Shown here: positions 11,028 through 42,368 of the stretch, in pieces | Numbering within the stretch: the stretch's first letter is position 1 | How the letters are laid out: the number at the start of each line of letters is the position of its first letter | Source of the DNA: Psilocybe cubensis | Taxonomy: Eukaryota | Direction: 5' to 3' | Assembly (NCBI GenBank): GCA_017499595.2 | Contig: CM039004.1 | Span: 2,666,001-2,730,000 of the forward strand | Length of the DNA: 64,000 bases | The notes under the pieces: generated by a model | Database searches by the model: none | What the model was told of the DNA's origin: nothing | What the model saw: only the letters and a program-made list of their open reading frames with translations | Program-made: the position numbers and the translations under genes

Positions 11028-11090
11028 CGGCCCCATTGCTTAAACTCAAATTAAAGCCTTACCTCGTGAATTTCTGTACCTACTGTCAAC

Positions 11091-15686: not shown

Positions 15687-15693
15687 GGGGGAG

Positions 15694-16110: not shown

Positions 16111-16662
16111 TCTACCTCTACCCGCTCATATAGGACTGTGGACGCTACGGTACTTGGAGAATCTTGGTAACCCATGTGGATGAAATGGAGCCTTGTTTTC
16201 TTGGACTGCTTACGACCTCAGTTGGTCGACTCTCCAGCCATATCGCGTGTGCATATATGCGCGTATTCTCGCTCTTTTCGAGGTTGTTTGATGCTTCTAT
16301 TGTCTTTGAAGTCCATCTGGGGATTTCTTGTGCCATTTCTCTGCACTTTGCCCTCGCGTTGTCTAATTTCAAATGCTTGCAGAGGCTACGCGAGTTTGTA
16401 TGCGCGTTACCCGGCTCTGTGGGCGCATATACTCGCTGATTTTGGATGTATTTACTGTTTTGTCCGCTGCGCTTGGGGTTTGTGGGTCCTAGCTTTTGAT
16501 TTTGCTTGTGGGCTGTGCGTTATGGCTTTGCGACCCTTTTTGTGCGCATATATGCACTATTTTTTGCTCTGCTTACAGCCTTCCAATTGACTCTTTCGGC
16601 CGGCGTGTTTGGCTTTCGAGCTTTTTCAATGGGTAGATGGGGATCTGCATCACTTTACCCTG

Positions 16663-17096
16663 TGTCAGGGTTTCTCCAGTTTCCCCTCTTTATCTTCACA
16701 GAATTATCTTATCCTTTCATTATCTTATCAATTATCTGATTAGATAGTTTATTTCTTTCATCACAGCCTTCTTGCTCCACTTCTTTCTAGTAAATTCTAT
16801 ATGATTCCTAGTCTTACTCATCCTTTTTCTATATGATGTCACTTTTATTCTTTAACCTTCCTTTATGATGTAATGTAGGGAATATTCTAGAATAGCTGTA
16901 GAGTATAAATACTGGACTTGTAGGTAGCTGTAGCTTCAGCTTCAATCTCTTAGGATATCCACTATCATTGGTGTGATCTCTTAGAACCATTGAATCTCTC
17001 TCACTCTCTTATTCTCTCTTTGCTCTCTTACTCTCCCTCTGCTCTCTCTCTCTCTCTCTTGCTTAATCTTTGTTGGTGGCCTTGTCACACTGATTA
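16663..17096 (+). repeat. Gypsy 5' LTR, main part (last 16 bp displaced to 35230-35245)
   Basis: Matches 40719-41152. TATAAATA at 16904-16911, and a (CT)n tract near the end. Confidence 0.96.
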
Positions 17097-17322
17097 CATC
17101 AGCAATACCGGGGCCAAGTAGGTAATGATCCGTAGTGATACGTAATTCTGTAGTGCCCATAGTAACGGTCCCATTTGGGTAACACACACTGATGTACCTG
17201 TAGCTTGGTACCAACGTGACATGGTACTCTGTAGTGATCTGTATTGTAACGCGAGTGCTGTGTAGCGGCGTGTAGCATGCTTACCATGGTCCATACCCCT
17301 CTGTATACAACTGACATACAAA

Positions 17323-17393
17323 TTGTAGCATACTACCACAGATTTGTAGCATGCTACCACAGATTTGTAGCATGCTACCACAGATTTGTAGCA
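17323..17393. repeat. 21-bp tandem repeat (ttgtagcatgctaccacagat), ~3.4 copies, subterminal
   Basis: Directly visible; the core GTAGCATGCTAC is palindromic. Confidence 0.9.
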
Positions 17394-17661
17394 CATCATA
17401 ACACACTGCAAATAGGTACAAAGGCATATATAGTATCCACTTTCATTTGTATAGTGTTGTGTGGCTATTCCTGCAAGTGCCAATATCACACTGAAAACCG
17501 AACCATTTTTGACTAAAATGGGCAATTTTAAAAATAGATAATCTATGTTTGGATCGGACCAAACATGTTTCTATTAGTAGATGCATAACTATTAATACGT
17601 GACGATCTAAATATGGTATCTTCTAATCCACACCCGGCAGCTGCCCCGCTCATTCACCCAA

Positions 17662-20403
17662 CTACCCTTCTGGACCGTAATCTAGTTCCTCCTGTGGGAT
17701 AGAATGGAGAGTCATCCTATAAGGGTTGGGGGGGTTCTTCGTAGGCCTCATAATAGCACTGATTATGGAGATCTAAATGATGCAAAGAAAGAAATGAATA
17801 AAAAAAGATACACACCATCCTTCCTCAGCCACTTCCCTACATAAGCGAGCCAAGCGAGGACCTTGGTTCAAGGTATCCTTCTCTGCCTCTGCTGCAACCA
17901 ACATGCAGGCATCATACCTCAGGGAGTACTCCTCTCCCTTGAATTCAATACCCGAACACGGACCACCTCTTGCAGGGTCAATCCCATCCCTCCACTCCTC
18001 AAGACAGTTGTGGATCTACAGCAAAATGCTTGTTAGCAAGGCAGTGCCAATAGCAGGAGAGAAATCAGAACTACACAACTGGCCACAAGCGCAAATGCTT
18101 TGTGGGGAAGCGATGTCTTGAAGAAATCCGTCTTTGTCTCCAGACCTTTGATGGGGACTGCAACCCCTTTTGTAGGATGGTAGAAGAAGTCCAGACAGAT
18201 CTTCTTCACAAAAGGATGTCCAAATGGGACATCGTGATACTGGAAACAAATCAATGAGTGGTAAGCCAGGTAAAATGGACGGCGAACTCACTCGGGTTTT
18301 GGCAACACCCCGGTGGTATTTACCATTGAGTAGCCAATATGCTACCCTGTCCTTGATGTATTCGATCTCCCCCATCTGATTTTCAAACATATTGGGGTTC
18401 GCGGCGATGACCTCCGACGGGACTTCGAGGCCATACGCATTTTTGACCAGGGGTCTGATCATCGTCTTCAGTCTTCCCCGGAAGGTTGACGCGTAGACAA
18501 ATGCCTAATGAGAACAGACACGTTAGTACGATATCCTTAAAAGAACACGCTAAAAATATACCGTTACGGCGGTATTCCTGTCTAGGAGCGTTTTTTTCTC
18601 TGCAAAGTTATGTAAACCAATTAACTAAAATCACAGAAGACAGAACTTACTATCAGGCAACACTTTATCCGTGTTCATTCTTTCAAACACGGTTACTGCC
18701 ATCTTCACACATCCATCGGCGACTAATAAGTGATTTTCCCGAGTGGGAAAGGGGACCTCCTCTACTACATACAGGCACATCAGTTTGCGTGCAATTTTGA
18801 GCACATCTTTCCAGTAACCAGTAAAGGATGCAACTGAATGCTTGGATACTTCCCTAGCAGAAGAAGTACTGGACTTCTTATGAGCGATGTGTGCCTCACC
18901 AAGCACCTCATCATCGTCAGATGCTTCGTTGTTCTCCCTTGTCAAACCTTGGGATACGGCTCCTTGCGAAACAGCCGCCTTGCGCAATGCCTCAGGGCGA
19001 GGTGGCTTGTTCGCCCGATTACGACGACGGTGTTCTTGAAGAACATCCTCTACTTCCACAACCTATATCAATAATACATTAGCTAGACATTAAATACAGC
19101 AGAGAAATGATTACATGGGGGGAAGGCTGGCGGAGCAATGCCCTTGCTCTCCTCTCCTCTTCATCATCGGAAACTTCATCAACCACTGTCAAACATAGGT
19201 GGTAAGCAAACACGACATAAAGGTGGAGTTAAACCAACGCTGGGCAGCAGGCTCTTCATCATCTTGACCCGCGTCGTCGTAACCTTCATCACCGTCGACA
19301 TATTGGAGAGCTTCTTCATCCCCAATATTCTCTTCATCAATTCCTTGCATGCATTCGTCCCCTGATGCTTCCTCAGATCGCCTTTCACCGTCACTATCCC
19401 CCTCTTCCTCCTCCTCATCTTCCTCCTGCTCTATGCCTTCGTAATCTTGTTGCTCCTCCTCGTCTTGATGGCTGATGCTAGCCTCTTGGTGGGCGTTATA
19501 GGCTGCTGGATGCACTGGCTGTTGTACGGGGGCATGTTGTGTTACAGGATGCACTGGTTGTTGTACGGGGGCATCGTAGTATTGGACAGAATTCTCTGCC
19601 GCAGGGGCAGCGTAACGCTGAACAGGATTTGCTGCGTGTTGTACAGGGCGCGGGACAGGATGTGCTGCATGTTGTACGGGGCGCGGGACAGGATGTGCTG
19701 GCTGTTGTACCGGAGCAGCGGGGCGCTGGATGGGGGCAGTGGGTCTTTGGACAGCATGATCAAGCTCTGAGTGCTCCTGATTTCTCTGAGCTGCACGTTG
19801 GATCTGGACAGGAGGGGGGGCACCCTGAGATTGTCGTGGGCTTGGTTGGACTTGTTGGACATCCCAAGGAGCAACTGAAGGCGTTGGCCTTGGTTGCATT
19901 TGAATAGGGGGACCTACATGCGACACAACGGTAACCTAGACGTGCTTGGAAGATAGCAAATTTAAGATTAGAACAGTAGACTCACCCCATTGCGAGGTTT
20001 CTTCAAGGGAGGCGCCATCTCATTTTCAGGCATGGCGCTAGTATCCACATTGGCGGCCCTTGACTTCCTCTTCCCAGCCTTCTCGAAGTCAATAAAAATG
20101 ATGTTAGATGTTTTCTCCTGCCGAGCATTTACTCCACCAAGACCACGGGTGCTTCGGATAGGATGGCCATTGGGGTCTTTTTAATAAGGAGTTCAGTGAA
20201 TCTCAACAAAGAAAATGCTAGTACAGACCTGCTTCAGGAGCCTGAGGTGGCTCGTTTTCTGCCACGGAGCTCGGACCCTGTTCAACCTCTTGTCCTAGAT
20301 GGATAAAACATTAAGTATGCGGATGTAATGAGGATATATAGATGATACCTTCAACCGTGGCATTGACAACCGCCTTTTTCTTTTTGGATCCTTTAGGTGG
20401 CAT
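17662..20403 (-). CDS. Multi-exon transposon-associated protein, DUF6532-like C-terminus, Q/P-rich and acidic N-terminal half
   Basis: Starts MPPKGSKKKKAV. Exons include ORFs 19189-19926, 18631-19059, 18016-18462 and 18033-18254 (DVPFGHPFVKKICLDFFY..LPHKAFALVASC, then IHNCLEEWRDG). Family assigned from motif memory; ends approximate. Confidence 0.6.
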
Positions 20404-21197
20404 ATTGGGCTGGTTTGACGGTTGTAATGCAGAAATAGAGACAAGGGGTGGTGAATTATGTCAAGCTACGATCCGGAGGTATGCGAAATTAGCATCTTTT
20501 CAAAATTTAAGGCGACGGACATCAGTCAAAAATATATCGTGCCATATAGAAATTACAGGTACTGAAACAGTACCCCTATCTACTACAATATATCACATAT
20601 ACATTATAGTCAGATTCCATGTCCTACTTAGAGTTAAGTAAAGTTACATCTCAGAGGGGAAAAGACTGCACCTATCATGATCGCGGATTATCCTGAGGGT
20701 GCATTAGAATAGGTATTCCCCGACTAATGAGGGATACCCGTAGACGGGCGATTTCGAGCTGGGTTTCAAACAGAAGATCTTCATTGGATTTATATGCTCG
20801 CATAATGTCGTCCATATAACAACGTAGCTCTGCCTGAACTTCTAGACACCTCTGTTCAGTGAGTTGAAATTGGTCAAGAGCCTTTTTAACGGCCTCTATG
20901 CCTTGATTCTAGAGGAAGGTGGATTAAAACATGAAAATAGACCTAAAACGAAGAACTCTGCCTCTTCGGGTATGCTAGGGAGGCGGCGACTTTGAGGTTG
21001 CGAAGCGTTGTTGCTATTGGAATGGTTCATGATAAAGATAGGCAACAATTTGGTGTGGTGGTGGTGGCTTAAGTTCAAGACGATCAACACATTACGAACC
21101 ATTAGCACTGTTGATTGCCGAAATACACTTAAATAGAATGACATAAAACCCGTATATGTCTACAAGTCCGTGTTCGAGATACAAGTAATGCTGCACC

Positions 21198-23557
21198 CTA
21201 CATATTTACAACTTTGACACCACGGGACGGGGGGAAGATTTGAATCAAAGATGTTGTCGGAAAAGTTGGGAATGTATCACCGCGTTTCATACGAGTAACG
21301 GGATATTTATGTACAACGCAAATATCCTTGTCTATTGATCGTATCCTGAATATAATCCCCATTGAATCGCCCTCAAGCGGTGTAACGAAGTCGTCCTTTT
21401 TTACAGGATGAATTGGAAACAACACTGATTTCGGTAATGTCAGTGTACGTCCCAGTAATGCTAGGTGGGCAGTATCGTCGGTAAGGCTGAGAAGTTCCAT
21501 CGCCACTTGATGGTCGCCCTTGGATTTGTCTACGACTTTTAATCGTAATCCTTTCAGCTTATCGTATTTCGTATCTAGCCAGTGAGCGACGGTTGAGGGT
21601 AGTTCTGCGATTTCCACCGCCGAGTGTACAGGTATTGCTGAATACGGATTCCATGCAGGAGACAGAAAACTTGCTACTGTGGACGGCATTGGAGTTGCTC
21701 CACCAGAAGGCCCGGGGTCTTGAGCGGAATTTATATGTTCTCGGTTGCTTGAAACAATGTCAGTAAGCACCTGACAGTCAACGAATCAAGTGAAACCACA
21801 TACTGTATAATTAAATGTGATATTTTAATACGTTCCACCCTCTGGTTACGAGCTTCCAGCTCAACGTCTGCAAAGCCGTCGGGGGTAGTGCTTTTAACGA
21901 TGCCATAGTACCCCTTGAATGTATTATTCCCGACAACGATGACACTCAAACCTATATAGACGTCGTTGTGGTCTCTTTCTCCAAGCTTTGACGAATGACG
22001 CTTTCGCGGGCGAAGAGTAGCATGGGCAGGGGGGACGTAGAATATGACTGTGTGGATGGGCACAATGACCTGAAAAATGTGTTGAACACTACTGAGACAA
22101 AGAGAATGACAGTTCACCTACTTCGCGTTCGTGCTCTGGGGCGATAATACAAACAGATCTTCCATCAAAGTCTGACACCCATCCATGGAGATCTTTGTGA
22201 TCCCCTTCAACGACTTCAACACTATCGCCTATCTGGAAAGCTGCACGTAGATCGTGTAGTGCAACTGCTTGTGTTATACCTTGGGAGGGGATGTGCACTT
22301 CCACCTCAGCGTCAGAAACACTCTTGACCGTTCCAAAAAGACCTAAGTATTCTCCACCAATAATTTTGACTCGATCATATCGTTTCAGTCGAGTCATGGA
22401 GATGGCTTTCGAGGCTTGCGCTAAGGTCTCCGTCGTTACAAATGGACACTCGCGAAATTGCTCCAACTCGGACGATGTTGGGAGGACATTGGAAAGATAT
22501 TTGAGATCGATGGCGTCGAAATCCGTGATAATAAATCCATCCTGGAATATCCTGTCGAGGTGCGATTTCTTGATGTTGTCCGGAGGTCTGGGGATAAGAA
22601 CAACACTTTTCCGACCCTGGAATGTGAACACAAGGCCGGTAGCATTTGCGTAGGTCGTCCAAGCCTTACGCTTTCCAGCAACCTTGACCCACGATTGGTC
22701 TTCAGGGCGTGAGGGTGGGGGATGAGATAGGATCTCCATACATCTCTCCGAGGATAGCCTAACTAAATGTGTCGGATTAAGCTCTCTAACGAGGCAGGCT
22801 AACGTATGCGCATGTTGCATTGATGGCGCCTCGACGTAGATTCTCCCAGGAATTGAGGATTGAGCGAAGACAGACCGGGCAAGGATGATGGGAAATGTAG
22901 GGTTCGTTGACATCTGCATAATTTTGAAAGCGACGGCCTCTTCGTGTCCAACCTATCACTCGTAAGGTGATCAATAAATGCTGACTGAAGACTTATATTA
23001 TTTTTGCGTACCTTGCAACCTATTTCATACATGATATCAGTCGCGGAAGGCATATAATTATTATCACCAAGTCCTCCTGGTTGGGGATTGCCATATTTCT
23101 GTATAAGTTCTCGTGAACTAGATGGCTCTATATCATTGTCAGGACGAATTTTCATGCGTGAAGGCAGAAGCATGGGCAACAAATCGCTCCATTCATCAGC
23201 GTTATCTGTATTTTGCATGGCATGATATAGCCGAGAGTGTGCAACACGTTCCTCATCCTCAGAGAATTCATCGTTATCATTCACTGTATGTCAGAACCCA
23301 TTAGCATCAGTACATATTGAGCAGAATATATGTAAATTATTGGAACATACGTAGTTGGCCCCCTTCATAATCAAGCTCTTCCGAACTTTCATCATCATCG
23401 GAAACCGCTGCTTCAATGTCTATGAAGGGATTAATGTCCTGATTTTTTGAGATCATAATTAAATTTCCCTGAAGTTAGTGATTAGATGGAGGGTTGGATT
23501 AGTACACACTGTGCGGTTGCCTAGGCTGTCAAGTCGTCTGCGTTTATAACTAGACAT
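21198..23557 (-). CDS. Divergent Spt5-like protein (acidic N-terminus, NGN domain, several KOW motifs), multi-exon
   Basis: NPFIDIEAAVSDDDE resembles the Spt5 N-terminal motif. YEIGCKVGHEEAVAFKIM..SVFAQSSIPGRIYVEA resembles NGN. KOW-like motifs: YDRVKIIGGEYLGLFGTV, FQIGDSVEVVEGDHKDLHGWV, IGLSVIVVGNNTFKGYYGIVKS. GGATPMP..SPAWNP may be a CTR remnant. Confidence 0.8.
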
Positions 23558-23661
23558 TGTGGGTCTTAAAGACTGTTAATCGATGTTCATCTCACTTAAT
23601 TTATCATCTTAACTTGTGATAATTTATTTTTAGATACTACACAACCTATTACTATGATAAG

Positions 23662-23806
23662 ACGCTATGATGAACGGAAAGAGAAAACATATGGTGAGAA
23701 ACACGCTATTTCCGGAGCGATTCTTTAGGGAAACCTACCCTAAAGAATCGCTCCGGAAATAGCGTGTTTCCAACTTGATTGTTTTTCTTTCCGTTCGTCA
23801 TAGCGT
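23662..23806. repeat. Long inverted repeat / hairpin
   Basis: Perfect 33-bp stem 23698-23730 / 23738-23770 with the loop AAACCTA, plus an outer imperfect stem acgctatgatgaacggaaag / ctttccgttcgtcatagcgt. Confidence 0.95.
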
Positions 23807-24176
23807 AGTACCCCTCCCCATAGATTTAACATACATTCTAATAAAATAGACATAGACAATACTCTAGACACTCTATAATAGTTTTCGTTCAGTTAAAATT
23901 CATCTAGTTGAAAATTTGAGACACCAGAAAAAAACACACAAAAAAAAGTAAGTACCCAAAGAAATAGAATGCAGGGTGAGACGTTGAAGTTTTGTAGTGC
24001 AAGCCCAGAAGATTTCCCCCGTTGCCCGACTCCAAGCTGAAGAAATTCTGGCGTTTCCCTTCGAAACGCAGGTCGTTCGTCAGACTCTGGAAAACATGTT
24101 GCCAGAGTCGCACCCACTCCGCGTAGGTCTTAATTGGATTGCCATTTATGGTACTAATATCAAGTTTCTGTAGAGG

Positions 24177-27100
24177 ATGGTGGATTTCCTCCGACGATAT
24201 GAGGACTTCACCTTTTTGAATTACGATGTTTCATCATCGAGCATGCGAGCGGCCATCAAGTATAGGCAAAGCTTGGCTGCCCTTCAGAACAGCATCGTAG
24301 AGACACCCTGCGTAACCTCGGCTACATGGGAGCAGGCGGGTAGCTTATTTGCAGCATACCGTCTACTCGATCTCGTAGCGTTGTGGCCAGCAGCCTTTGG
24401 ACCATCGTTGCCGGTGACCGTGCCCCTGAATGAAATACAGGCCAGCACAGGAACTAAGGAAATATTTTCACGGTTCAAGGTATGCGATCATGAAGTCACT
24501 CAATGTTAATTCTTAATTTTCAAACAATTATTGTAGCTTGTAGATGACTTGAAGGACTGGCCGGCAATGCTCTGCTCTGCCAGGAAGCGCATCCTCAGAG
24601 CCGACTCTAAGTCGCACAGAAACATCAACACCCCTTCTATCAGTGACACGCCGTCATCCGCTTTCACCCAGGGCGGGCCCTCGGAATCAACGCTATTACT
24701 CTGTCTGGCGCGTAACCACTTCAAGGGTGTTGTGGGGAAAATAATCGGGAATGTGTACTGCGCCTCGCTACACTACCAAATCTTGTCAGGAATGCGCGGT
24801 ATGAAGGACGATGAACACGTTCTACCAGACATTCCAACGGACACGGCTACTCTTGCAAATCTCTAGTAAGTTTTCTTTCCTCTATTCATTGATACAATCT
24901 GCTCAACATACCCTAGTGCAAGCGGCCATCCTGATGCTGCGTTGTTCCTCTCAGAGGTCACGCCATCTCATTTAAAAATTCCTCTGCATGTCGCCCTTTT
25001 CATATCCCCCATCCTTCTTTTTGTGAATAAATCTTGGTATTCTAAGAAATGTGACCGGGAGCAGCTGCTTAAAGTAGGTGTATCCACATCCTCCCAGTTT
25101 AACTTGGATTAACGCACTCCTTTAGGCCTCAAAAGCGCTCGGTAATTGTCGCCCCCGTGTTCTGCGTGAAGTGGAGATGGAAATTTGGAAAATCATTGCA
25201 GCGCAAAATTGCGACATCCAGTCAGCCTTATATAAACTTGTTATCTCAGACTGCTGGATGGAATGCGAGCGGGTAATTGCACAAGATCCCGCGTTTCACT
25301 TTTTCATATGTGTGTTCTACGTACTGTAACAAAATAACAATTTAAACTAATAATTGGCCAGCGTCAACGAGCAGCGCCGAGGTTACAGCAAATTCTAACC
25401 TAGCAAGGCGCAGCACTGAACCACACGGTAAGTTATAAGCAAAGTCTGCGTCAATTACATGATTTAAATCCGTTTAAAACAGCTCAACTTCAGACCGTTT
25501 CCCATCATGGTGAAAAAACCACCTGTGAAGGGTCCGACGCAGACGCGGAGGGTGACGATGATCACGAAGTGGACACGACAGAAATGGTCAGCATGGGTCA
25601 ACGGGAGAACGGGGACAATACGGTCCCTACCTCAAATATACAGCCTCCGGAAGACACGTCTTCAGTGGCTGGCAAGGATGTCAGCATGGGTCAACAGGAG
25701 AACGGGGACAATACGGTCCCTACCTCAGATATACAGCCTCCGGAAGACACATCTTCGGTGGCTGGCAAGGATGTGCCCACGGACGAGCAACCTGGTTTGC
25801 CGCGGAGTGATGATATTGGATCTGGTCTACTTCAGACTGAGAATACTGGGCCCTCATCTGCAGGGGATTGTGAGATGAACGTCGATCCGGAGCAAGCTGA
25901 TGTCGACCATCAAATGGAGGATGGTCCACATACCAATGGTCCAGAAAATTTGGGAGATGGCGGGGCTGGACAAGGAGCTGAAGGGTCTTCTGACGAGGCA
26001 AATCGTATGTCGGAAGTTCACGAGGGCGAAAAGCAGGGGCAAGACGGAGAACGACCCGACGAGGAGAACCGAATGTCAGAAGATGGTGAGGAGGAAAGGC
26101 CAGACGACAGTTCGTCGGACAATGAGACCGAGAAGCAGGGGCAAGGGGATGTTCCACCAGTCCAGGAGGACAGAATGTCGGTCGATGGAGAGGGGGTAGG
26201 CCCAGAGCAAAACAATGATTCCTCAGACATGGAGAGGAATACATTGGAAGACAGCCAAGGCGAAAAGGAGGGGGAGAACGCACCTCCTGCTCCTCTTATT
26301 TTGAGGATTCCTCCTGTTTCCCAGATAAACAGGAGCAAAAACACCACGGCTGACTCCTCTCAGAAAGGGAAAGGGAAGGGCCGGCAGGGCCTTTCCAAGC
26401 GGCCTCCCAAACGCAAGCCGACGCAGGCTACCGACACATTTGATTCGGACGACGACCTGTGTATTGATGTCGATCTGTACGACAGCAACACCACCCTTGA
26501 TGTCGTCAGCACTCCGGAGAAGGTGTATGGCACCAAAGTTTGGTCCACCTACAACGGTCGTGGCCAACTTAAAAGTTTCTGCGTTGTTGCCCATGTAAGT
26601 CATTCTCGATATTGATTTTTTCGTCATTTATTTATTCTCCAAACAAGAGTCAAGCCGACGTGGATCGTGTTGAAAGGGTTCTGGAATTGGTCGAGAGTGA
26701 CTACGTCGATGGAGTTCCATTGCACATAGCACGTCCCGAAGAATCATGTTTTGCGGTATTCGACCGCAGCACCACGAAATCCATGTATCTGATGGAGTCT
26801 TTCTCTGAAAGGAACGTCGTCCTTATGTCTCCTTCTCAAGAGGAGTCTATTTCAACTTGCTCCGACGAGTTCTACAGCCAGGTACGTCGCCATATGGGTG
26901 ATATGACGAGCACCAGGTCAATCCAAGGTGTGTTTCCTCTTCGATGTTTTGATTTTTCTTTCTGCGTCTCATGCTAATGGCCGTAACAGATATGTCGACC
27001 ATGTCGTCTAACCCCATCGAGAGGATTAAGCGTGGGTCCCTCTCTCAGGTCATGGAAGCAGCGAGGATGAAAGGCAAAAGAGGAAAGATCCTCAATGCCC

Positions 27101-28659
27101 TCGACATCCCTTTACCTCATGCAGGCGCTCACTCTTTTGACTTGAGTACTGAGGCGGCTGCTCTTCGGGCTACATCTGGTAGCTGGAAGTATAGTACCCC
27201 CGTCCCATTTGGTGATATGTCATGGGGACTCGTAGCTACAGAGGGGGCATTTTCAGATATCCATATCGATGCCAATGGTTTCTGTTCCTTCATCCAACCT
27301 CTTCATGGACTGAAGCTGTGGATTATCATGTATCCCAGACGGTTGGATGTTGACCTTTCTTCTGACCGCCGTGTATTTCTGGGAGACAAGCTGGATTACG
27401 GGGAAATGCACCACCAAGACTGGATTTACGAGGCGATTGTTCTCGATAACCAGTCAGAACTGTATGTGATTTTTGAATGTCCTACCCATTTGATTATATT
27501 GACGCTACTTTGAAAAACAGCTTCATGAGACCGAATACTCTACATATGGCGTATTCTATCTCCTCAGTGGTTTGCCGTGGCGGACATTTTTACTCCTCCA
27601 CTTCCTTCGAAGAAACCCTGACAGGAATCATTCACTGTTTTACCGCTGGATACAGGGCAACGAATACGAATCATTCAACGTCCCGATTTTTCCTGCAGCA
27701 AACCATACATTGGTTCTACAAGGTTTTGGTTGAAGGTGACAGCGACCCAGAAGGTATGAGGTTTTTTACCGTTTCCTACAAGATATCTGATTCTTTTCTT
27801 CTATTTTCTCTCAGATTTTTATGAAATGTACCATGTCCCATTCTACAGTACGCAGTCCGGATACTCGAGCTTGATAGCTCTGTGCGTGTGCATGATCTTG
27901 GCAAATGCGCTCGACTACGAGACCTATCGAAATCCCGATCAGATGTTCTCCACCAAGACTTCGGCACAGTTAGACGCATGGATGCGGTGGGATACCAACA
28001 GCCTGAGCGACGAAGAGCGCAAGGCGTGCATCTTTGCCCGTGGCGAAGCCTTGGCTATTCTAGAGTGGCTATGTCATCGCACGAAGTCCATCCACTACAT
28101 GATTGAGACGGACAAAAACAAGGATGCACAAAATATCATGGCGACAGAAAAGTTCCATGAAATGATACTTTGCCGCTATGCCCGTATGATTCTAGCCTAC
28201 GACGCAGAAGCCAAACATAACAACATTGGTGGTGCCCCTTGCTGTACCGACACCAGTTTGCTTTTTGTCCAGCTTCAGGGCGTCTGCAGCGGAGAATTGA
28301 ACAAGGTTATATGTCGCAGTATCGACCAGCTTCCTCGTTCCTCGGTCCCAAAGATGCTCAAGTTACCCGTAATCACTCTCATTGACTGTGATGCCTGTGC
28401 GGATTCCTCAACGCAATTGAGTAGGTGGACCAGTGTCTGCCTTTGGATATTCACTAACCACGTCACAAACTAGGAACTCCCAAGGAGATTCTGGAACTTG
28501 GTACAAGTGTGAGGGATAAACTGTATCTGGATGGCATGAAAGTCAAGCTGGAGAGCACAAATCCGAGTACGTGTGTTCGATTATGCCTTTACGTCGCAAA
28601 TGCTTATCTCTTCATCAGAATCAGAGTCTGTTCCGCCTTCTAAACGACGGCGACTTTGA
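24177..28659 (+). CDS. Multi-exon JmjC-domain (Fe/2-oxoglutarate oxygenase) protein with a long acidic disordered region
   Basis: WGLVATEGAFSDIHIDANGFCSFIQPLHGLKLW and FMRPNTLHMAYSISSVVCRGGHFY give HxD..K..H in JmjC spacing. The last exon ends PPSKRRRL*. Exons are linked by GT..AG introns; the 5' end is uncertain. Confidence 0.75.
25587..25772 (+). repeat. 93-bp in-frame tandem duplication (31 aa)
   Basis: VSMGQ(R/Q)ENGDNTVPTS(N/D)IQPPEDTSSVAGKD occurs twice. Confidence 0.95.
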
Positions 28660-29130
28660 TATTGTACAACACATTGACACACATCTTGATTTACATACAT
28701 GCCATGTTTTATTTAGTACTGAAAGGCGTGTATGTCCTGTAACATAATGACGATTGTTTTATTATCTGTAGTTGTGTGCTGCTCGTATCGCCAGACCAAT
28801 ACGCAAATTCTCGCTGGGATGAAAGCTTCTGGCTTTACTGTAACTGCTGTGCGTTTGAATTTATCATCAAGGTCAATGAAATCAACTAACTTACGTTTGT
28901 TGATGCTTCTTCCACCCACTTCAAAAAATGTGTTAGTGTCTTTGTTCTGGTGCGTATATACAGTAAAGCTCTTCCGAAGCCCTCCTTGGATTGTACTACG
29001 GATTGGTTGAATACTAACCCATGTGAAATTTGTTTGTATTAACGGAGACATAATCAGATAACATTTATAGACCCACTGCACGTTACTGAACATTACATTA
29101 TCAGTTTTTTTTTCGTATCTTCGCTTTTGT

Positions 29131-32100
29131 ATGAGTCGTTGTTTCAACATGGGAAAGGGCAAGGGCAAGAGAACTCAGGAAATCTGTGTGCGTTGTCCTC
29201 GATGCAACAAGCCATTCGCTAAGCATGCAGATGTCCAAAATCACATCAATCAACCAAAATCGGCATGTCGTTTTCAATATGAGAACGTTATGCATTTTCA
29301 GTCCAATCGTTCAAGCTCTACATCTAGATCAGCAACCCCCGTATCTCGAGACCCTTCTCCCGAAATTGGTAATTTTATGGAAGTGGACTATATCGACAAT
29401 TTTCTTGGCGCGTCATCAGAGATGGAAGATGACCCACCCCCCAAGGCATCAAAATACAACTATCCGTACGTGAAGGAGGATTATAACGGGGCTGGAAGAG
29501 CATTTGGAACAGGCCTTACATTCATGGATCAGCTCAAACAGGATCAATTCGAACCCCAGCGGGCGGAAAATTTGTACTATCCTTTTGCCTCGAAAGATGA
29601 ATGGGAGCTCTCCCTGTTCCTACTTCGCTCTGACATGAGCGTAGGAATGCTGAATGATTTTTTGAAACTTGAACTGGTAATTGAGCGTACATTCCCATCA
29701 TTATTTATTTCAGCTGAGTCGATCCCGTATAGATAAAAAAACTCAACTTGTCCTACAAGTCGGCAAAAGATCTACGCAACCGGGCAGAGATCCTTCCCTC
29801 TGGTCCGCAGTGGAAGAGTCAAACGATCATACCAGAAATACCAAGCAAAAATCAGCTAACGCTTTTTTACCGCGATGGATTGGAATGTATCAAGGCGCTT
29901 CTCATCAGTCCCTTGCTCCAAGATAGCATGCACTTTAGCCCATTCAAGCTCTTCGACAAGTGCAACGAGATGATGCGGGTATACACTGAGTGGTTTAGCG
30001 GTGACATTGCGCATTTTATGCAGGTTAGTAGCAATGCCTTTGTCCAAGTTTGACGACAGTATAACAAGGTTCCCAAGGACCAGCTCCCAAAAGGAGCAAC
30101 ACTTGTACCTCCTATTATTTCCACGGATAAAACCAACATTTCCAACATGACCGGAGGCCGTGTCGCCTACCCTGGCCTTATCAGCATTGCCAACATAATG
30201 ATGAACGTTAGAAACAAATCGTCAAATCATTTATTCCTTCTTTTTGTTCTTCTTCCCATACCAAAGTTTCTTCATCGCTCCAAAGCTGTGAATGGGATGA
30301 TGGCAGCACGGCTATATCACCAGTGCATGGACATTGCTCTAGAATCGGTCAAACAAACTGCGAGGGTGGGAACCACCATGGCAGATGCATTGGGGAATAA
30401 TCGTTTCTGCTTTACACCGCTTGCTGCCCTTATCGTTGATACTCCAGAATCTGCTCTGGCGGCTTGCATCGCAGGATCCACATCCTCTGTGACGTTGGCA
30501 CAATACGAGACGTTTGGGGATTCCTTTCGCCACCCTTCCCGAACTGCAGATCATACAATCAACACCATCATGGCCATCAACAATGTTAAGCCCCCTAATC
30601 ATCTCGAACCATATCTAAAAGAAAGCAAAAAGCACCGTCTCAATGGGGTTCACCTACCGTTTTGGAGAGATTGGCCCTTGTCTGATCCTTCTGCATTCCT
30701 TACGCCTGAACCCCTTCATCACTGGCACAAGATGTTCTGGGATCATGATGCAAAATGGTGCATTGCTGCAGTCGGAGGTTCCGAATTGGATTTTCGATTT
30801 TCGATTTTACAGCACCGCACTGGTTTCCGACACTTCAAGGAAGGGATTTCTTCCTTGAAACAAGTGACCGGTAGGGAACATCGGGACGTTCAGCGATACA
30901 TTGTTGCTCTCATTGCAGACACAGTCAGTACACCCTTTATCTTAGCCATCCGGTCTCTGATGGACTTTCGGTATCTCGCACAATCTCAAACAATCTCCGA
31001 GGCAATGTGTCTCAGAATTGAGCAGGCACTGCAAGATTTCCATGCCAATAAACAAGCCATCCTTGACGCGGGAGCACGTCGAGGTAAAAAAAACAACCCA
31101 ATCGATAATTTCTATATTCCAAAACTCGAGTTTTTGCAAAGTGTAGTACACGCAATTAGACTAAATGGATGTGCAATCCAATGGTCTGCAGACACGACAG
31201 AGCATGCACATATCGAGGTGGTCAAAGCCCCTTCCAGTTCCAGCAATAATCAAAGATACGAGCCTCAAGTTTGTCGATACCTTGATCGTCGTGACAAATT
31301 GCGCAATTTCGATTTGTTTACAGCTATACGAGAAATGAGGATTGATTTTCGGGCTATACACTCTGCAACAATTACGGATGAGGAGGAGCAGGAGGAGGGG
31401 GATGAGGGGGAGGAAAACGGCGAGGTTGTGATGGACACAACGTCAGAACTTCTTTCAACAATCATGCCGATGACAACCTTTCAATCAGCAAAGTCCAATC
31501 GCATTGTGGATTACTTCTACAAAGCTAGTCTCTATGAGCGTGGCGTATTGGAAGGCCCAGTCCCCTACAGAACATTTTCTTGCAGCAAAAACGTTGTTGC
31601 CCATTTATCTAGGGATGCTAGTTCCAAAAGATTGCATATCGACGAGGTTGCGAGCATTTTTAAAATTCCCGACCTACGACCAGCAATTGCCGATTATGTG
31701 TCACTCATCAATAAGGAATCAAATCCGAGACAGACCAATTCTCGAGGTTATCACATCAAGGGGATAACTGGCAGGCGTGTTTCTCCTCCCGGTTGTCCGT
31801 TGCCGTATTCAAAACTTGAGGTATGGCATAAGGTCCGTATACAGTCGACTGCGTACCAATACCCTCATGAGATCCTGGAGGCAGTCACACTTAATGCATA
31901 TCCGCCATCTAACAAACATCCTTTTGGATACTTCGATTCAGCAATCATAAACGTGGATGAATCTGAGGAGTGGCCTCGCAGCGGGCTTCAAGGTAGTACT
32001 TCTTTGTGACTTTTTTCCGAACCCCGTTGACCAGCCAATATTGTAGGCCATTCTGTCGTCGACATTCGTATTATTTTTCGCATTGTCGGAGAGACACCCA

Positions 32101-32435
32101 GTACTGTGTCTCCCGATATTACTGGAAGATTTCTCGCATACGTCCAACGTTTTGAGGTTTTAAATCAGCCACAGTCTCTAGGTTCTGCGATCCGTGGACC
32201 TTACCCAGAGCCAATAACCGGCATGTATAAATTAAAACGAAGTCAACGTACAGATAACACCATTATGGGTGGAATTTTACCATTGAATCAAATACGCTCC
32301 CTGGTTGATCTGGTCCCTCAGATGGGCGAGAAGGCAAGGCGAAGCCTTACTACACATAACAGTCATTCCACTAGCACCGAGTTCCGATTAAACAAATATT
32401 TTGACAAAGAACTCTATTTGGCCCTGTCATCATAA
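29131..32435 (+). CDS. Plavaka-family transposase with N-terminal zinc finger (multi-exon)
   Basis: CPRCNKPF..HINQPKSAC, YYPFASKDEWEL, LFYRDGLECI, RVYTEWFSGD, IISTDKTNISNMTGGRVAYP, PLAALIVDTPE, TPEPLHHWHKMFWDH, TGFRHFKEGISSLKQVTGREHR, FYIPKLE, WSADTTEHAHIEVVK, FRLNKYFD. Confidence 0.88.
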
Positions 32436-32475
32436 CATATCCACCTCAGGAAACCCACAAAGTTTTCAATCCCTA

Positions 32476-33010
32476 ATGCACATTGCCACTCAAATTATCA
32501 CCCAACACGCCGGCCTCGTTGTACACAAAGACGACTCGGATCAATATCAACAGCCGCTTCTCACCAGTCCCGCTTTCTCACACTGTATCATCGTCACCTA
32601 CTGCATATCCCTCCATCCATCTCATCTCTGCAGAATCAAGTCGTTCTCGCTCATCTTCCGCTCACCACCGCCCAAACTCCAAAGGATTCTTCCCAGAGTG
32701 CCTCTTCCTCTAAACAAAAATTCGCCTCCAGTCTTGTCGGTCCGTCCTGTCCTCAATTAGCGCCCATCTTGCCGGAGATACTCACTTTATTTTTTCAATT
32801 CCATTGCAGATTAAGCTGTCAGCACCTTATCTGAGATCTGGCGCCCTCAAGACATTCCCTCCCTATTTCTACCCACTGAAGTCCTTTGAGGATTGAGGAC
32901 ATCTGGAAACATACTGCAGACAGCACTATGTTATCTCGAAGCCATTCGTCCCAAGGTTCCCAAAATTTGCAAGAGGAAAGCATTGGCCTCTCTCCCACAA
33001 TCCATACCTG
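32476..33010 (+). pseudogene. Disrupted partial duplicate of the cyclin 5' region
   Basis: About 435-bp offset copy of 33061-33300 with the same intron (32740-32809), an in-frame TAA at 32812 where the second copy has CAA, and a fragment RTSGNILQTALCYLEAIRPKVP. Confidence 0.7.
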
Positions 33011-34119
33011 CCATGCCTCTGTATCATTACCTACTGAATACCCCTCCATCCGTCTCATTTCTGCAGAATCAAGTTGTTCTCACTCATCTATTCCACCCAC
33101 CACTGCGCAAATTCCAAAGGATTCTTCCCAGAGCGCCTCTTCTTCTAAACAAAAATTTTTTTCAAGGCTTGCCGGTCCGTCCTGTCCTCAATTAGCGCCC
33201 ACCTTGCCGGAGATACTCACTTTATTTTTTAAATTCCATTGCAGATCAAGCTGTCAGCACCTTGTCCGAGATCTGGCACCCTCAGGATATTCCTTCCGTG
33301 TTCCTACCCCCCGCCAAAGTAGGGGGTAGCTCTTTTCCTCCTACTCATTCCCGTCCAACTTCCAAGCAGATCTCTTCCGATTTGCAATCCATAGCGTCTC
33401 ATACACATCCAATACATCCACACAACAGTCATCCCTCCGTATCCGGCCATAACCCTTCCCCGACCCTCTTGCTTGCCTCGGGCACCAAATCCGATCAGAT
33501 ATTACCCCTCAAGTCTTTTGTTTATAAAGTCCTTCGCCACTCAAGGACATCTAAAAACGTACTGCAGATAGCACTATGTTATCTAGAATCCATTCGTCCC
33601 AAGGTCCCACAGATTTTGCAAGAGGAAAACATCGGCATTCGCTCTTATGCTCAGCCCAAAAGCAGTATTCAGAAAGCTACCCCAGAAGAGCTGGCGATGG
33701 ATGCTGAGCTTACTGCTCTTGAGAACTCCGGCAAGATCAACATCATCAATAATTTCATTGACAATTCTATGCAAACATTCCGTGTTGCCGATTCTGGTTC
33801 ACAAGATCTGGCTGAATCGTGCATCTATCCACAAGACTCTCTGTCCAGCGTAGATGTGCAGGTCTCAACGGCTCCTCTTTCCACCACCCTTTCTTTGCCA
33901 TCTCCCCTCCTGTGTCCCCGTAGAGCCTTTCTGGCATCCCTCATCCTGGCCTCCAAATTTTCACAAGAAAAGTGTTATTCTAACCGTGCTTGGGCAAGGT
34001 TATCTGGTCTCCCACCTCGTGAAATTAGTCGCTGCGAACGTGCCCTCGCACAAGCCTTGCAATGGCGACTCTGGGTCGGCAAATGCGCCTTTGGTGAGAG
34101 TGCTGCAACTGCCACATAG
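33011..34119 (+). CDS. Pho85-cyclin (PCL-type) family protein or fragment; intron 33175-33244; start codon unclear
   Basis: Cyclin box LKSFVYKVLRHSRTSKNVLQIALCYL and LLCPRRAFLASLILASKFSQEKCYSNRAWARLSGLPPREISRCERALAQALQWRLWVG. No clear in-frame ATG was found upstream of the box. Confidence 0.7.
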
Positions 34120-34363
34120 TCTCAATAAGTTTCAACTTTCACGACCGCGCCATGTAGTACGCATTCTCAATAATCACTCTCTTGCTTGCCACCACTACGC
34201 GCGCTCCTCCCGCATTCAGTTAGATAGGCATCTTCTTAGACTAGCCTAGAAAAATCTATAGAACTTTGTTTTACGTATACAGAACCCCTGAAGAATTTTT
34301 ATACCCGCGAAGTTTGTTTTCAGCTTGAATTCCAACTACGACAAAGTGAGCGTATCACACACC

Positions 34364-34914
34364 ATGCAAATCATCAGCTATGAGGAAATTTTACGAATCG
34401 AAGCAGAAGTATTGGCCCCTACTTTCCCAGATCTAATACATCCTACAACTTTCCCAGAGGCCGCCTCACTTGCTTCTCAAAGACAGCAATACGACTTGGA
34501 AATGGCTCAGTTAGTTGAGCAGACCCAAAAAATGGTCCTTTTGACCGAGAACAGGCTGATACTGGCCATCCTGGCCCTTTTCAACGAAATTAACTGGACC
34601 ACCCTGGACCCAAGGTTACTATCGTTGGCTAAAGCCAAGATTACCGAGGGTGACCAGTGGCTCAAAGCACGAGCCGTGAGTTTTCTGTTTCTTCAAGTTT
34701 CAAGTTGATACTCTTGCTTAAGATAACTAGGAGGAGACACTTCGGGATGCAGACTCAGGCAGCCCCGAGCACATATTGACCCAAGGGATGTCCATTATAG
34801 CCAACGGCCAGATTCATATTCGAACGGTAGAGGTGAGTCACAGTGATAACTACTTTGTTTCTACACTTTCTTAGTAATGGGCAGGATCTCATACGAGAAT
34901 GTCAGGATCATTAA
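34364..34914 (+). CDS. Small hypothetical helical protein (probably 3 exons)
   Basis: ORF from MQIISYEEILR with GTGAGT donors at ~34676 and ~34833 and matching AG acceptors; no recognisable domain. Confidence 0.4.
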
Positions 34915-35247
34915 TAGGGTCAAGATACTACATTGTAAATAGACACTTAATTGCCTTTAAAAATGTACATTTTATTGCTTGATATGATTGAAGAGCTTTA
35001 CTGAGACCAATCACATTGGACATCAAACTCTCCTAAGTCTGGAATCGTACATAGAGATAGCTAGGAAAATCCAAAGCTCGCAGTAGTAATGTTGGAATGC
35101 TACAGAGCTCAACGGAGCATCCCGCCGATGACACATGACGCTATACTGTCTACAGCCCACTTTGATGCTACATCCGGTTGGCAGGACAATACGTTGAGTT
35201 ACCTTCGAAAATCCGGATTTACTGATGTATAGTGTTGCCCTGACAGA

Positions 35248-35258
35248 AGATTGAAGCT
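35248..35258 (+). promoter_or_regulatory. Self-priming PBS (Tf1/sushi type)
   Basis: AGATTGAAGCT is the exact reverse complement of LTR 16938-16948 (AGCTTCAATCT), 34 nt downstream of the TATA start. No TGG tRNA-type PBS is present. Confidence 0.8.
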
Positions 35259-35736
35259 CTCTCAAGACAACTCCACCATCTCTCTTTCAACACCAAACTC
35301 TTCACCTCTTCAACCTCTTCAACACCATTACCTCAACCTTCTTCCTCCACTTCCAACCCACCAACCTCTTCATCAACCTCTCCACCAATCTTCTTACCAA
35401 TCTCTACATCTCCACCAATCTTCAACATCCTCCTCAAGACCTTTCCTCAAGACCTTTGGCTCATCATCTTTCCTACTCTCTGTTGTGTGCTGTGTGTGAA
35501 CTTAGTAGATAGGGATACCAACTGTTGGGGCAGACACAGTCCTACTAGTGTTCTGTTTTTGGTGGTCTAGGAAATATCCAGTAACCCTGTGATCCTAGGT
35601 TTAGAGCCCTGAGTGGTGTGACAACTGGGTATCCAGTAGATAGATATTTTTTTAGAATACTTAGTATAGTTTCAAGGGCACTTTCAGTAGATAGCTTCTC
35701 CCACACACACATCAGAGAGCCTACCTACCCCTACCC

Positions 35737-36840
35737 ATGGACATGGACCCCTCCCAATTGCCTCCCACCACTCCTTCTGTGGAAGAGCTCATGCATCAGG
35801 TCCAGCTCCTTACCCAAGAGTTGAATTTTCTTAGACAGCAGCAGCAGTCATTATCCACTCCACCACACCCTCAGCAACCAGTCAGTCAGTCACCATCACC
35901 ACCACCACCACCTGCTGCTCTAGATATTCACTCTTTCCCTACCCCTCATGTTGCCCCTTCCTGTTCACACTCTGCCATTAAAGTCTCACCTCCAGATCCA
36001 TTTGATGGTTCTATGGAGAAGGCAGAAAACTTCCTCAGTCAGCTTAAATTATATTTCTATGGGAAAGGGATTACAGATGACTTTCAGAAAGTTATTTGTG
36101 CTCTATCTCATATGAAAGGAGGTACTGCTGGGAAGTGGGCATATGAGAAGACTAAAGTAATAGACAATGCTCAGTCCCAAGAAGGTCTTTGGGCTGACTT
36201 TGTTTATGAATTTAGGGAAGTATTTGCAGATCCAGACCCCTCCAACACAGCTAAGCATAAAATGCACATGCTCAAGCAAGGCAGACAGACTGCTGATGAG
36301 TATGTTGCTAGCTTTAGGGCTCTGATCTCAGATACTGGGTATAATGATGCTGCTTTGGTAGACCAATTCAAGGCTGGGCTTAATGAAAATCTCAGGAATG
36401 CAGTCTATTATGTTCCTGACATGCCCAAAACCTTGGATGGATGGATTAAATGGAGTACCAGGCTAGATAGGCAGTGGAGACAGAGTGAGGCCTTTACCAA
36501 GTCTCTTTCCTCCTCCTCTTCTTCTCCCTTCCTTAAAGCCCCAACTCCCAAGGCTATTTCTAAGCCTACTCCAAATCCTCCAGTCTTTTCCAATAGCAGC
36601 TCTAGGACCTTTGGTGCTCAGGCAAAGCAACCAGATGTAGTTCCCATGGAGGTTGACTCTGGATGGAAGTCAGTTAGGCCAATTGTTTGCTTCAAGTGCA
36701 GAAAGCCTGGTCATAAGGCTGTAAACTGCAGGTCATCAGTTAACATCAATGCTATGACCCATGAAGAACTGGCTGACTACTTTGGGAAATTAATCTTGGA
36801 AGGCAAGGAGCAGAAAGATGAGGAAAAGAAAAATTTTTAG
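35737..36840 (+). CDS. gag: Gypsy Gag
   Basis: KVSPPDPFDG, ALSHMKGGTAGKWA, LKQGRQTADEYVASF, VPMEVD, zinc knuckle CFKCRKPGHKAVNC. Confidence 0.93.
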   Translation: MDMDPSQLPPTTPSVEELMHQVQLLTQELNFLRQQQQSLSTPPHPQQPVSQSPSPPPPPAALDIHSFPTPHVAPSCSHSAIKVSPPDPFDGSMEKAENFLSQLKLYFYGKGITDDFQKVICALSHMKGGTAGKWAYEKTKVIDNAQSQEGLWADFVYEFREVFADPDPSNTAKHKMHMLKQGRQTADEYVASFRALISDTGYNDAALVDQFKAGLNENLRNAVYYVPDMPKTLDGWIKWSTRLDRQWRQSEAFTKSLSSSSSSPFLKAPTPKAISKPTPNPPVFSNSSSRTFGAQAKQPDVVPMEVDSGWKSVRPIVCFKCRKPGHKAVNCRSSVNINAMTHEELADYFGKLILEGKEQKDEEKKNF

Positions 36841-41168: not shown

Positions 41169-41251
41169 CCCTGCCCACCATCACTTTAGCTTTCGCACTC
41201 GTGGTATCTCTTGTGTCTGGATTATCATTGCATGGTCGATTACCCCTGTCG

Positions 41252-42360: not shown

Positions 42361-42368
42361 CAGCCATA

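Follow-up and report, generated by a model that had tools for sequence, protein, structure and literature searches.

An 18.1-kb PlavakaB transposon of Psilocybe cubensis with Spt5-like and JmjC-like genes as candidate counter-silencing cargo

The 64,000 nucleotides at positions 2,666,001 to 2,730,000 of Psilocybe cubensis contig CM039004.1 (assembly GCA_017499595.2, forward strand), referred to here in full length as the window, contain a complete DNA transposon at positions 17097-35227. The element is a young, autonomous PlavakaB cut-and-paste transposon of P. cubensis or a very close relative, and next to its transposase it carries accessory genes that include a paralog of the transcription elongation factor Spt5 and a JmjC-like gene. 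That it is a mobile 18.1-kb unit with a fixed set of accessory genes is close to certain. From their sequences, the accessory genes are predicted to counteract silencing of the element, a reading that we favour tentatively and to which we attach slightly less than even confidence.

Two kinds of cargo appear to be new for transposons, namely the Spt5 paralog, which is the first found in the literature searched, and a JmjC enzyme of the histone-demethylase type. The mushroom can be cultivated, and its genome holds multiple copies of the young, intact element; the copy described here stands beside a CpG-free retrotransposon that seemingly uses the opposite strategy, which makes the escape of a DNA transposon from heterochromatin directly testable. 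Should the cargo prove inert, the element would still serve as a reference for the giant Plavaka elements of fungi, with exactly known ends.

Ends, mobility and copy number of the element

The transposon spans 18,131 bp, has the termini 5'-CATCAG..CTGATG-3' and interrupts the 5' long terminal repeat (LTR) of a Ty3-type retrotransposon. Comparison of the window with itself revealed two pairs of direct repeats at 100% identity, 10599-11015 with 15694-16110 and 16663-17096 with 40719-41152, the second of which (434 bp) represents the LTRs of the Ty3-type element. The match of the 5' LTR breaks off after 17096, where CATCAG directly follows; on the right, the terminal CTGATG (last base 35227) precedes TA and TAGTGTTGCCCTGACA, the 16 bases with which the intact 3' LTR closes. 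This uninterrupted copy of the LTR has the sequence ..GATTA/TAGTGTTGCCCTGACA, and the interrupted 5' LTR reads ..GATTA, the element, and TATAGTGTTGCCCTGACA. The empty site GATTA/TAGTG is present in the sister (3') LTR, and TA is duplicated on both sides of the element. The ends are therefore fixed by the TA duplication together with an empty site in a sister LTR of 100% identity.

The initial annotation had placed terminal inverted repeats (TIRs) at 17662 and 34914. No inverted repeats were found there, and the true ends lie 565 bp and 313 bp further out, respectively. The TIR is short and imperfect (CATCAG.AA..CCGG), and a blastn comparison at word size 7 of 17097-18400 with 34200-35700 gave a best match of 12 nt at E 0.19. 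Subterminal repeats are clustered at the ends: seven of the eight forward copies of TGTAGC in the element lie at 17199-17387, within its first 300 bp, and include a 21-bp unit repeated three times, and two of the six reverse copies lie in the last 130 bp, at 35099 and 35167.

Raw whole-genome reads of run X13 were mapped onto 16500-35700. A total of 999 reads join 17094 to 35228, omitting 18,133 bases (18,131 + 2), and the same joint was present in contigs of runs X11 and X12. Loose read ends were observed at 17097 (217 reads) and 35227 (214 reads), where the reads continue into diverse flanks (agreement 0.42), so the element is present at many insertion sites. The earlier proposal that the cargo genes are parts of a single mobile element is thus borne out by a clean TA duplication, the empty site in the sister LTR and the many other sites of insertion.

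The summed depth of both read directions was 439-608 in all 28 bins from 17141 to 35088, compared with about 20-37 in the flank at 16510-16647, which suggests roughly 16 full-length copies; with depth this even across the element, all or nearly all of them carry the whole cargo. At least 99% identity to the window copy was found for 68,677 of the 86,259 mapped reads (80%), which points to a recent burst. Internal joints, amongst those listed, are represented by at most 27 reads each at a depth of about 500-600, and deletion derivatives are therefore rare. Contigs of runs X10-X12 (listed pieces of 208-687 bp) also match across the element at 99-100%; these runs bear three other organism labels and may derive either from other species or from the same fungus. 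Sequence words of 21000-29000 were almost entirely absent from two runs presumed to be RNA.

Gene content of the element

The features of the element are as follows, with the basis of each assignment in brackets.

17095-17096, no strand: left TA target-site duplication (TSD) (LTR comparison and read joint)
17097-35227, plus strand: complete PlavakaB DNA transposon (termini, empty site, reads)
17097-17393, plus strand: left imperfect TIR (CATCAGCAATACCGG) and subterminal TGTAGC repeats (sequence)
17773-20033, minus strand: DUF6532-like gene with Met at 20033, a P/Q-rich stretch, an acidic stretch and the domain in the last three exons; approximate model (Pfam)
23557 to 21201, minus strand: Spt5-like gene with acidic N-terminus, NGN, KOW domains and a conserved C-terminal domain (Pfam, tblastn, model)
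About 23557-23510, 23453-23352, 23284-23009, 22952-22119, 22108-21803 and 21806-21201, minus strand: exons of the Spt5-like gene (tblastn of P0156, P0005, P0155 and P0011)
23662-23806, no strand: long hairpin between the two divergent genes, in their common 5' region (sequence and folding)
24096-28659, plus strand: JmjC-like gene, about 1,300 aa, at least 9 exons (alignments of annotated paralogs, profile and fold matches)
29149-32378, plus strand: Plavaka transposase with N-terminal zinc finger, PF18759 and DUF6830 (Pfam)
32583-32874 and 33019-33309, plus strand: two direct repeats of about 291 bp, 87% identical (self-comparison)
33196-34119, plus strand: main exon of a cyclin-like (PHO80/Pcl-type) gene (sub-threshold Pfam, Atlas, paralog names)
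34322-34675 and 34731-34832, plus strand: small two-exon open reading frame (ORF), about 151 aa (P0175 residues 2511-2661, 100% identical)
35099-35227, plus strand: right subterminal GCTACA repeats (35099, 35167) and right TIR (sequence)
35228-35229, no strand: right TA TSD (LTR comparison and reads)

Protein searches returned P. cubensis proteins at 96-100% identity, of which 19 were mapped onto the window, and the same gene order was found at 11 annotated loci, with the JmjC core exon covered by 11 annotated proteins. The consecutive genes JR316_0004105 to 0004109, for example, encode the Spt5-like protein (in two halves), the JmjC-like protein (in two pieces) and the transposase, in this order, and on another contig the accessions of an Spt5-like and a JmjC-like protein are two apart. 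The transposase is linked to the cyclin-like exon in six gene models, and P0175 (2,670 aa) is a fused model that combines the JmjC-like gene, the transposase, the cyclin-like gene and the small ORF. All exons of the window copy that were aligned to annotated paralogs are open, with stops confined to intron gaps. The initial description of the frames as largely open holds wherever annotated paralogs align, and the observed-to-expected CpG ratio (CpG o/e) of the element, which was described as CpG-rich, is 0.81.

The transposase proposed on the plus strand was identified through Pfam matches to PF18759 (E 5.1e-64 and 1.1e-16) and DUF6830 (E 3.8e-45). PlavakaB elements are described as having termini CATCA..TGATG and a TSD of 2-3 bp (PMC12730594 sec. 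3.2.2, in its accessible text), and the element studied here combines a Plavaka-type transposase with CATCA..TGATG termini and a 2-bp (TA) TSD. The pair of repeats of about 291 bp lies between the transposase and the cyclin-like exon and covers part of what is probably the first exon of the cyclin-like gene.

The Spt5-like gene was assigned correctly to the minus strand in the initial annotation. In Pfam searches its NGN domain scored 23.0 and 24.0 bits (cut-off 22.4), KOW 32 bits and KOW2_Spt5 51.1 bits. An AlphaFold (AF2) model built from 22 homologs reached a mean predicted local distance difference test (pLDDT) score of 83, and in a Foldseek search of the PDB with this model ranks 1-24 were all Spt5 chains of RNA polymerase II (Pol II) elongation complexes (E 1e-14 to 2e-8). 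The canonical Spt5 proteins P0117 and P0142, which show the Pfam domains KOW1_SPT5, KOWx and KOW4 and, in P0117, also a C-terminal repeat (CTD), match the Spt5-like query at E 1.6e-9 and 1.7e-8, compared with 1e-46 to 1e-20 for members of the family itself. No longer relatives of the Spt5-like exon were found in the search. The Spt5-like protein is a shortened paralog that is distinct from the housekeeping Spt5.

The JmjC-like gene was likewise confirmed on the plus strand, by sequence, profile, Atlas and fold matches and by a conserved motif, with no match to Pfam JmjC (PF02373) or Cupin_8 in the window exons or in P0175, P0184, P0185 and P0187. Its HxD (HIDANG) and GxK motifs lie in the exon at 26980-27468, and a second His (NTLHMAYS) and GGHF lie in the exon at 27522-27752; HxD and the second His make up the metal triad, and the motif as a whole binds the metal and 2-oxoglutarate (2OG). 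A PDB sequence search returned PHF2 as the only match (E 0.4-0.5), and a profile of eight homologs gave ceKDM7A (E 0.042) and KDM2A (E 0.27-0.59) as best matches; HxD, GxK, the second His and GGHF line up with those of PHF2, ceKDM7A and KDM2A. The best Atlas cluster was a 'JmjC domain-containing protein' of Basidiomycota (score 0.93, 194 of 256 features), and Galerina homologs are named JmjC in UniRef. The structure model was poor (mean pLDDT 39, core blocks 52-80), and the matches listed by Foldseek for this low-confidence model were JmjC/FIH-type 2OG oxygenases (PHF8, KDM7A, KDM2A, PHF2 and JMJD6; E 2e-4 to 6e-3, low TM-scores). Altogether, the product is a divergent predicted oxygenase that is closest to the KDM2/KDM7 histone demethylases, with an intact metal/2OG motif.

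A PE-type TET/JBP identity of this gene was considered and rejected, since the sequence, profile and fold matches were to JmjC/FIH-type 2OG oxygenases, with no TET protein among those listed. Tet_JBP had no match in the window ORFs scanned with Pfam.

The Spt5-like and JmjC-like genes diverge from a shared region of 0.5 kb between their start codons at 23557 and 24096, so that the divergent arrangement proposed around 23.7 kb was found from about 23.6 to 24.1 kb. The long hairpin reported in between is real. Its arms (23662-23730 and 23738-23806) are 69 nt long, 87% complementary and separated by a 7-nt loop, and as single-stranded DNA it folds at -68.4 kcal/mol (z = -18.8), with none of 200 shuffled sequences folding as well. 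At the apex (23730), 221 X13 reads depart from the window sequence into one common other sequence (agreement 0.98). These reads and one X10 contig contain the 7-nt loop in inverted orientation, followed by sequence absent from the window.

The remaining genes of the initial annotation were also recovered on the proposed strands. The DUF6532-like gene (minus strand) shows three colinear exons from 18504 to 17773 that match PF20149 positions 55-101, 113-158 and 158-188 with 23.2, 17.0 and 14.6 bits, each below the 24-bit cut-off, and in the literature DUF6532 turned up merely in a listing alongside Plavaka and KDZ domains. The cyclin-like exon (plus strand) gave sub-threshold Pfam matches (E 1.5e-3 and 3e-3) to PF08613 (18.4 bits, cut-off 21) and PF00134 (18.7 bits, cut-off 23), its 15 best protein-language-model matches in the Atlas were PF08613 clusters (score 0.93, 202 of 256 features), and the source annotation calls its paralogs 'G1/S-specific cyclin pas1'. 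No cyclin Pfam matches were listed for the fused models P0175 and P0176, and no PDB sequence match was found for the exon. These results point weakly to a PHO80-like product. The small ORF is present at 34322-34832 on the plus strand and showed no Pfam match and no recognisable family.

Conservation and distribution of the accessory genes

Host genes can be captured by transposons without any benefit, as in Pack-CACTA and Pack-MULE elements, and the accessory genes might be such passive cargo, acquired once by an ancestral element and looking conserved owing to the recent burst. The high identity of most reads to the window copy fits this explanation, given that uniformity within the genome says little, and one subfamily carries a dead JmjC motif. 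We nevertheless consider it improbable, because the genes retain their full length, several exons and open frames, few copies show internal deletions, and conservation extends to distant relatives. The Spt5-like family is far from the host Spt5 and comprises 379 cluster representatives at E <= 1e-3, of which 92 reach 1e-10 or lower and 10 reach 1e-30 or lower. The ratio of nonsynonymous to synonymous substitution rates (dN/dS) of its main exon was 0.28-0.64 for pairs with dS of 0.05-0.35 among 12 metagenome loci, which indicates moderate purifying selection of the degree usual for mobile-element proteins. In the JmjC-like protein, HxD..K..H is kept in seven of eight aligned homologs from four genera (Psilocybe, Infundibulicybe, Galerina and Termitomyces) at an overall identity of 23-27%. 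Cargo that differs at random between copies and evolves neutrally, which the initial annotation had named as the counter-case, therefore does not describe what was found: the depth is even, the gene set recurs at the 11 annotated loci, and the dN/dS of the Spt5-like exon is below one.

Additionally, the same head-to-head pair was encountered beyond the P. cubensis copies, which again speaks against passive capture. A scan of metagenome contigs with an alignment of six sequences identified 20 loci with Spt5-like genes. One of these, L020 (5.2 kb), contains an Spt5-like NGN exon at 4985-5248 and, on the opposite strand with the 5' ends facing each other, a JmjC-like gene that is recognisable as three colinear segments at 23-37% identity, up to the contig end. 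The pairing of Spt5-like and JmjC-like genes is, judged from these alignments, old.

The two divergent genes of L020 are separated by an inverted repeat (3257-3412) with 48-nt arms of 98% complementarity. This repeat can be read as a mini-element of 106 bp that has CATCAG..CTGATG ends and TA on either side and was inserted at the centre of a palindrome (GGCT-TA/.../TA-AGCC). On that reading, Plavaka-type elements exist in that genome too.

The co-occurrence of JmjC and Spt5-like genes, which the initial annotation had named as a check, was observed at the 11 annotated loci and in L020, and no JmjC-like neighbour was seen in L002 (the same sequence as L005) or L019. No JmjC or Plavaka match was found beside the Spt5-like genes of L002, L004, L005, L006, L011 and L019. 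Pfam searches of neighbouring ORFs were blank for 19 of 20 (the exception being Helitron_like_N in L019) and, in a further set, for 74 of 75 (the exception being a weak deaminase match), and PDB searches of two ORFs neighbouring Spt5-like genes returned nothing meaningful. The deaminase match, to OTT_1508, concerns L005 304-2854 on the minus strand, a sequence also present in L002 (E 1e-4, 22.6 bits, cut-off 27). This gene is divergent from the Spt5-like gene and may represent a further pairing of an Spt5-like gene with a nucleic-acid-modifying enzyme. In fused gene models of Agrocybe chaxingu, the Spt5-like sequence stands beside a weak Tet_JBP match (P0010; 29.3 bits, cut-off 34.9) or an RTC4-like match (P0024), both sub-threshold, and P0031 combines an Spt5-like sequence with an RTC4-like match below the cut-off.

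These other neighbours of Spt5-like genes, all of them sub-threshold matches, and the lack of a visible transposase in the other long loci would fit an Spt5-like/JmjC-like pair that belongs to the host, or that forms a selfish module of its own, and is found inside this family in Psilocybe incidentally; its function would be directed at the host, for example at development or at defence against other repeats. We assign very little probability to this explanation. The pair lies inside an element bounded by TSDs, the even depth leaves room for few or no copies outside of it, many copies together with fast evolution are what genes of mobile elements typically show, and the putative mini-element of L020 suggests that Plavaka-type elements also occur in that genome.

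Possible roles of the accessory genes and comparison with known systems

According to the counter-silencing reading, the accessory proteins would act on the element's own chromatin and transcription and thereby keep it expressed despite the silencing of repeats by the host. Repressive methyl groups on histone lysines would be taken off by the JmjC enzyme. On the element, the Spt5 paralog would accompany elongating Pol II or compete for a place on it, as RfaH does on foreign operons, and the cyclin would activate a host cyclin-dependent kinase (CDK), which in turn would phosphorylate the transcription machinery or time transposition. In bacteria, specialised NusG paralogs such as RfaH serve foreign operons and protect horizontally acquired operons from silencing.

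Information about the pressure on repeats in this genome is provided by the host retrotransposon, which consists of the following features.

16663-41168, plus strand: host Ty3-type LTR retrotransposon, 5' LTR split into 16663-17096 and 35230-35245, 3' LTR at 40719-41168
16658-16662 and 41169-41173: TSD CCCTG of the Ty3-type element, LTR ends TGTCAGGG..CCCTGACA
35695-36837, plus strand: gag, 381 aa, with Ty3 capsid, gag and zinc-knuckle Pfam matches in the frame 35695-36840
36822-40715, plus strand: pol, open frame of 1,298 aa

The retrotransposon contains no CpG in 5,941 + 434 bp, with about 253 expected in the 5,941-bp internal part. Its depth was about 2,400 over the 5' LTR bin and about 1,320 at the start of the internal part, compared with about 30 for single-copy sequence, which suggests tens of copies. 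With LTRs of 100% identity and open gag and pol, it looks like a completely CpG-free and apparently active retroelement, and a literature search on CpG-free active retroelements found no account of one. The CpG o/e of the Plavaka element is close to that of the outer flanks (0.84-0.90). The contrast between the CpG-free Ty3-type element and the Plavaka element fits a strong CpG-directed pressure on repeats, and the composition of these sequences suggests that such a pressure operates in this genome.

Two further repeats were observed in the window. A second LTR retrotransposon (10599-16110), with 417-bp LTRs at 100% identity, has a composition opposite to that of the Ty3-type element (GC 0.54, CpG o/e 1.27). 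To the right of the Ty3-type element, nested inverted repeats occupy 41246-43812, in which 41956-42761 forms a 76% palindrome and the stretches 41246-41404 and 43652-43812 are paired; these may represent a foldback-type or non-autonomous element.

Several observations weigh against the counter-silencing reading. Amongst these is the pattern of differences between copies: 31 C>T and 34 G>A changes account for most of the 103 variant places in X13 and are of the methylation type, and of 14 differences examined between the window and other copies, 10 have T or A in the window where most reads have C or G, 8 of these 10 at CpG. The Plavaka copies are therefore not shielded from CpG decay, and these transitions suggest that the copies do get methylated. 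A recent burst would leave the cargo uniform among copies of at least 99% identity, and such uniformity is not in itself evidence of selection. The 221 reads that leave the window sequence at the hairpin apex mean that a large share of the copies have a different sequence at the hairpin. A sister P. cubensis subfamily (P0004, P0182 and P0183; 53-62% identity) has lost the H, D and K of the JmjC motif, the DUF6532 and cyclin assignments rest on sub-threshold Pfam matches, and among the three different loci in which 4 kb or more precede the Spt5-like gene (L002=L005, L019 and L020), only L020 has a JmjC-like neighbour. Finally, the element's Spt5 paralog P0156 showed no Pfam match to KOW1_SPT5, KOWx or CTD and only a sub-threshold one to KOW4 (18.7 bits, cut-off 27). 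In fission yeast, the length and phosphorylation of the Spt5 C-terminal repeat region (CTR) are reported to counteract heterochromatin (PMC10659198), and for this reason a CTR-less paralog could favour silencing instead.

An alternative is that the accessory genes serve the transposon in another way, through TnpA-like end recognition or transpososome assembly, the choice of target chromatin or coupling to the cell cycle or development, or that they restrain it, with a CTR-less Spt5 slowing or terminating transcription or acting in a small-RNA pathway as SPT5L/KTF1 of plants and Spt5m of ciliates do. We regard this alternative as unlikely, though serious. CACTA-type elements as a rule depend on a second protein with affinity for subterminal repeats, and the clustered TGTAGC copies at both ends offer such repeats; the cyclin points to cell-cycle control, the Spt5 paralog is without a CTD match, and the copies show CpG decay. 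A purely mechanical role is hard to reconcile with a histone-demethylase-type enzyme that has conserved catalytic residues. A role like that of KTF1, in which a GW/WG repeat tract recruits Argonaute, finds no counterpart in the C-terminus of the Spt5-like protein, where no such tract was seen by eye and no formal scan was run. Spt5 paralogs of silencing pathways do exist, namely Spt5m in Paramecium (PMC5416832) and KTF1 with Pol V (bioRxiv 10.1101/2023.04.30.538882), according to the accessible text of these sources. The accessible literature on epigenetic cargo of transposons, in contrast, reads such cargo as counter-silencing.

The counter-silencing reading can also be extended, in a speculative form that we hold to be unlikely at present. 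The head-to-head Spt5-like/JmjC-like pair would then be an ancient mobile counter-silencing module of mushroom transposons, in which the Spt5 paralog captures or reprograms Pol II as a eukaryotic counterpart of RfaH, the demethylase clears repressive marks and the cyclin recruits a CDK. The wider Spt5-like family would be a general accessory factor that pairs with JmjC enzymes and possibly with TET/JBP proteins or deaminases.

To our knowledge, transposons with epigenetic tools of their own are rare and few of them are well characterised, these being VANC in plants, TET/JBP in fungi and SET with 2OG-oxygenase proteins in algae and oomycetes. In the VANDAL (MuDR) elements of Arabidopsis, for which anti-silencing has been demonstrated, VANC is a sequence-specific DNA-binding protein that causes the loss of DNA methylation. 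As with VANDAL, the element described here is a DNA transposon encoding a factor that is proposed (here) or shown (VANC) to undo the silencing of its own element; unlike with VANC, histone demethylation and control of elongation would be expected.

The Spt5 paralog resembles RfaH-type proteins, SPT5L/KTF1 and Spt5m in being a second, shortened NGN-KOW protein beside the housekeeping Spt5 or NusG, which in those systems is dedicated to a subset of transcription units. We know of none of these that is encoded by a eukaryotic transposon. KTF1 and Spt5m differ from the role favoured here in that, according to the accessible text on them, they promote the silencing or elimination of repeats. The JmjC-like protein shares its best sequence and fold matches, and the alignment of HxD, GxK, the second His and GGHF, with the KDM2/KDM7 enzymes (JHDM1, PHF2/PHF8/KIAA1718). 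It is set apart from them by a core identity of 16-23% in the Foldseek alignments, the absence of Pfam JmjC, PHD, CXXC or F-box matches, unrelated N- and C-terminal domains, and its multi-copy, transposon-borne nature. No transposon-borne Spt5 paralog and no JmjC gene of a fungal transposon was found in the literature searched, with Iyer et al. 2014 and the supplements of PMC12730594 outside its coverage.

The closest relatives of the element are found amongst fungal Plavaka transposons. TET/JBP genes have been described in fungal Plavaka and KDZ elements (PMC12730594), and the PlavakaB elements of Agaricomycotina include families carrying TET/JBP in Agaricus bisporus and Gymnopus confluens (Kojima 2025, PMC12730594). 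With these the element shares a transposase with PF18759 and DUF6830, CATCA..TGATG termini, a 2-bp TSD, an Agaricales host and a 2OG/Fe(II) oxygenase beside the transposase. The oxygenase is JmjC-like here, and Spt5-like, cyclin-like and DUF6532 genes are not mentioned for PlavakaB in the accessible text of PMC12730594. In basidiomycete Plavaka elements, TET/JBP is the sole accessory gene known from the accessible text of two sources (bioRxiv 10.1101/2025.02.11.637652; PMC12730594).

The giant Plavaka elements of red algae, as far as their description is accessible, measure 17.4-19.1 kb and carry the accessory genes PAG1-3, which include a 6mA-methylase/SET protein and a ParB-2OG oxygenase (bioRxiv 10.1101/2025.02.11.637652), and the authors of that study proposed that the PAG genes have favoured proliferation. 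The P. cubensis element resembles them in its size of 18.1 kb, in having several conserved accessory genes for chromatin or DNA modification, including a 2OG oxygenase, and in the inverted repeats beside an accessory gene. It differs from them in the kingdom of its host and in its cargo, which here consists of Spt5-like, JmjC, cyclin and DUF6532 genes.

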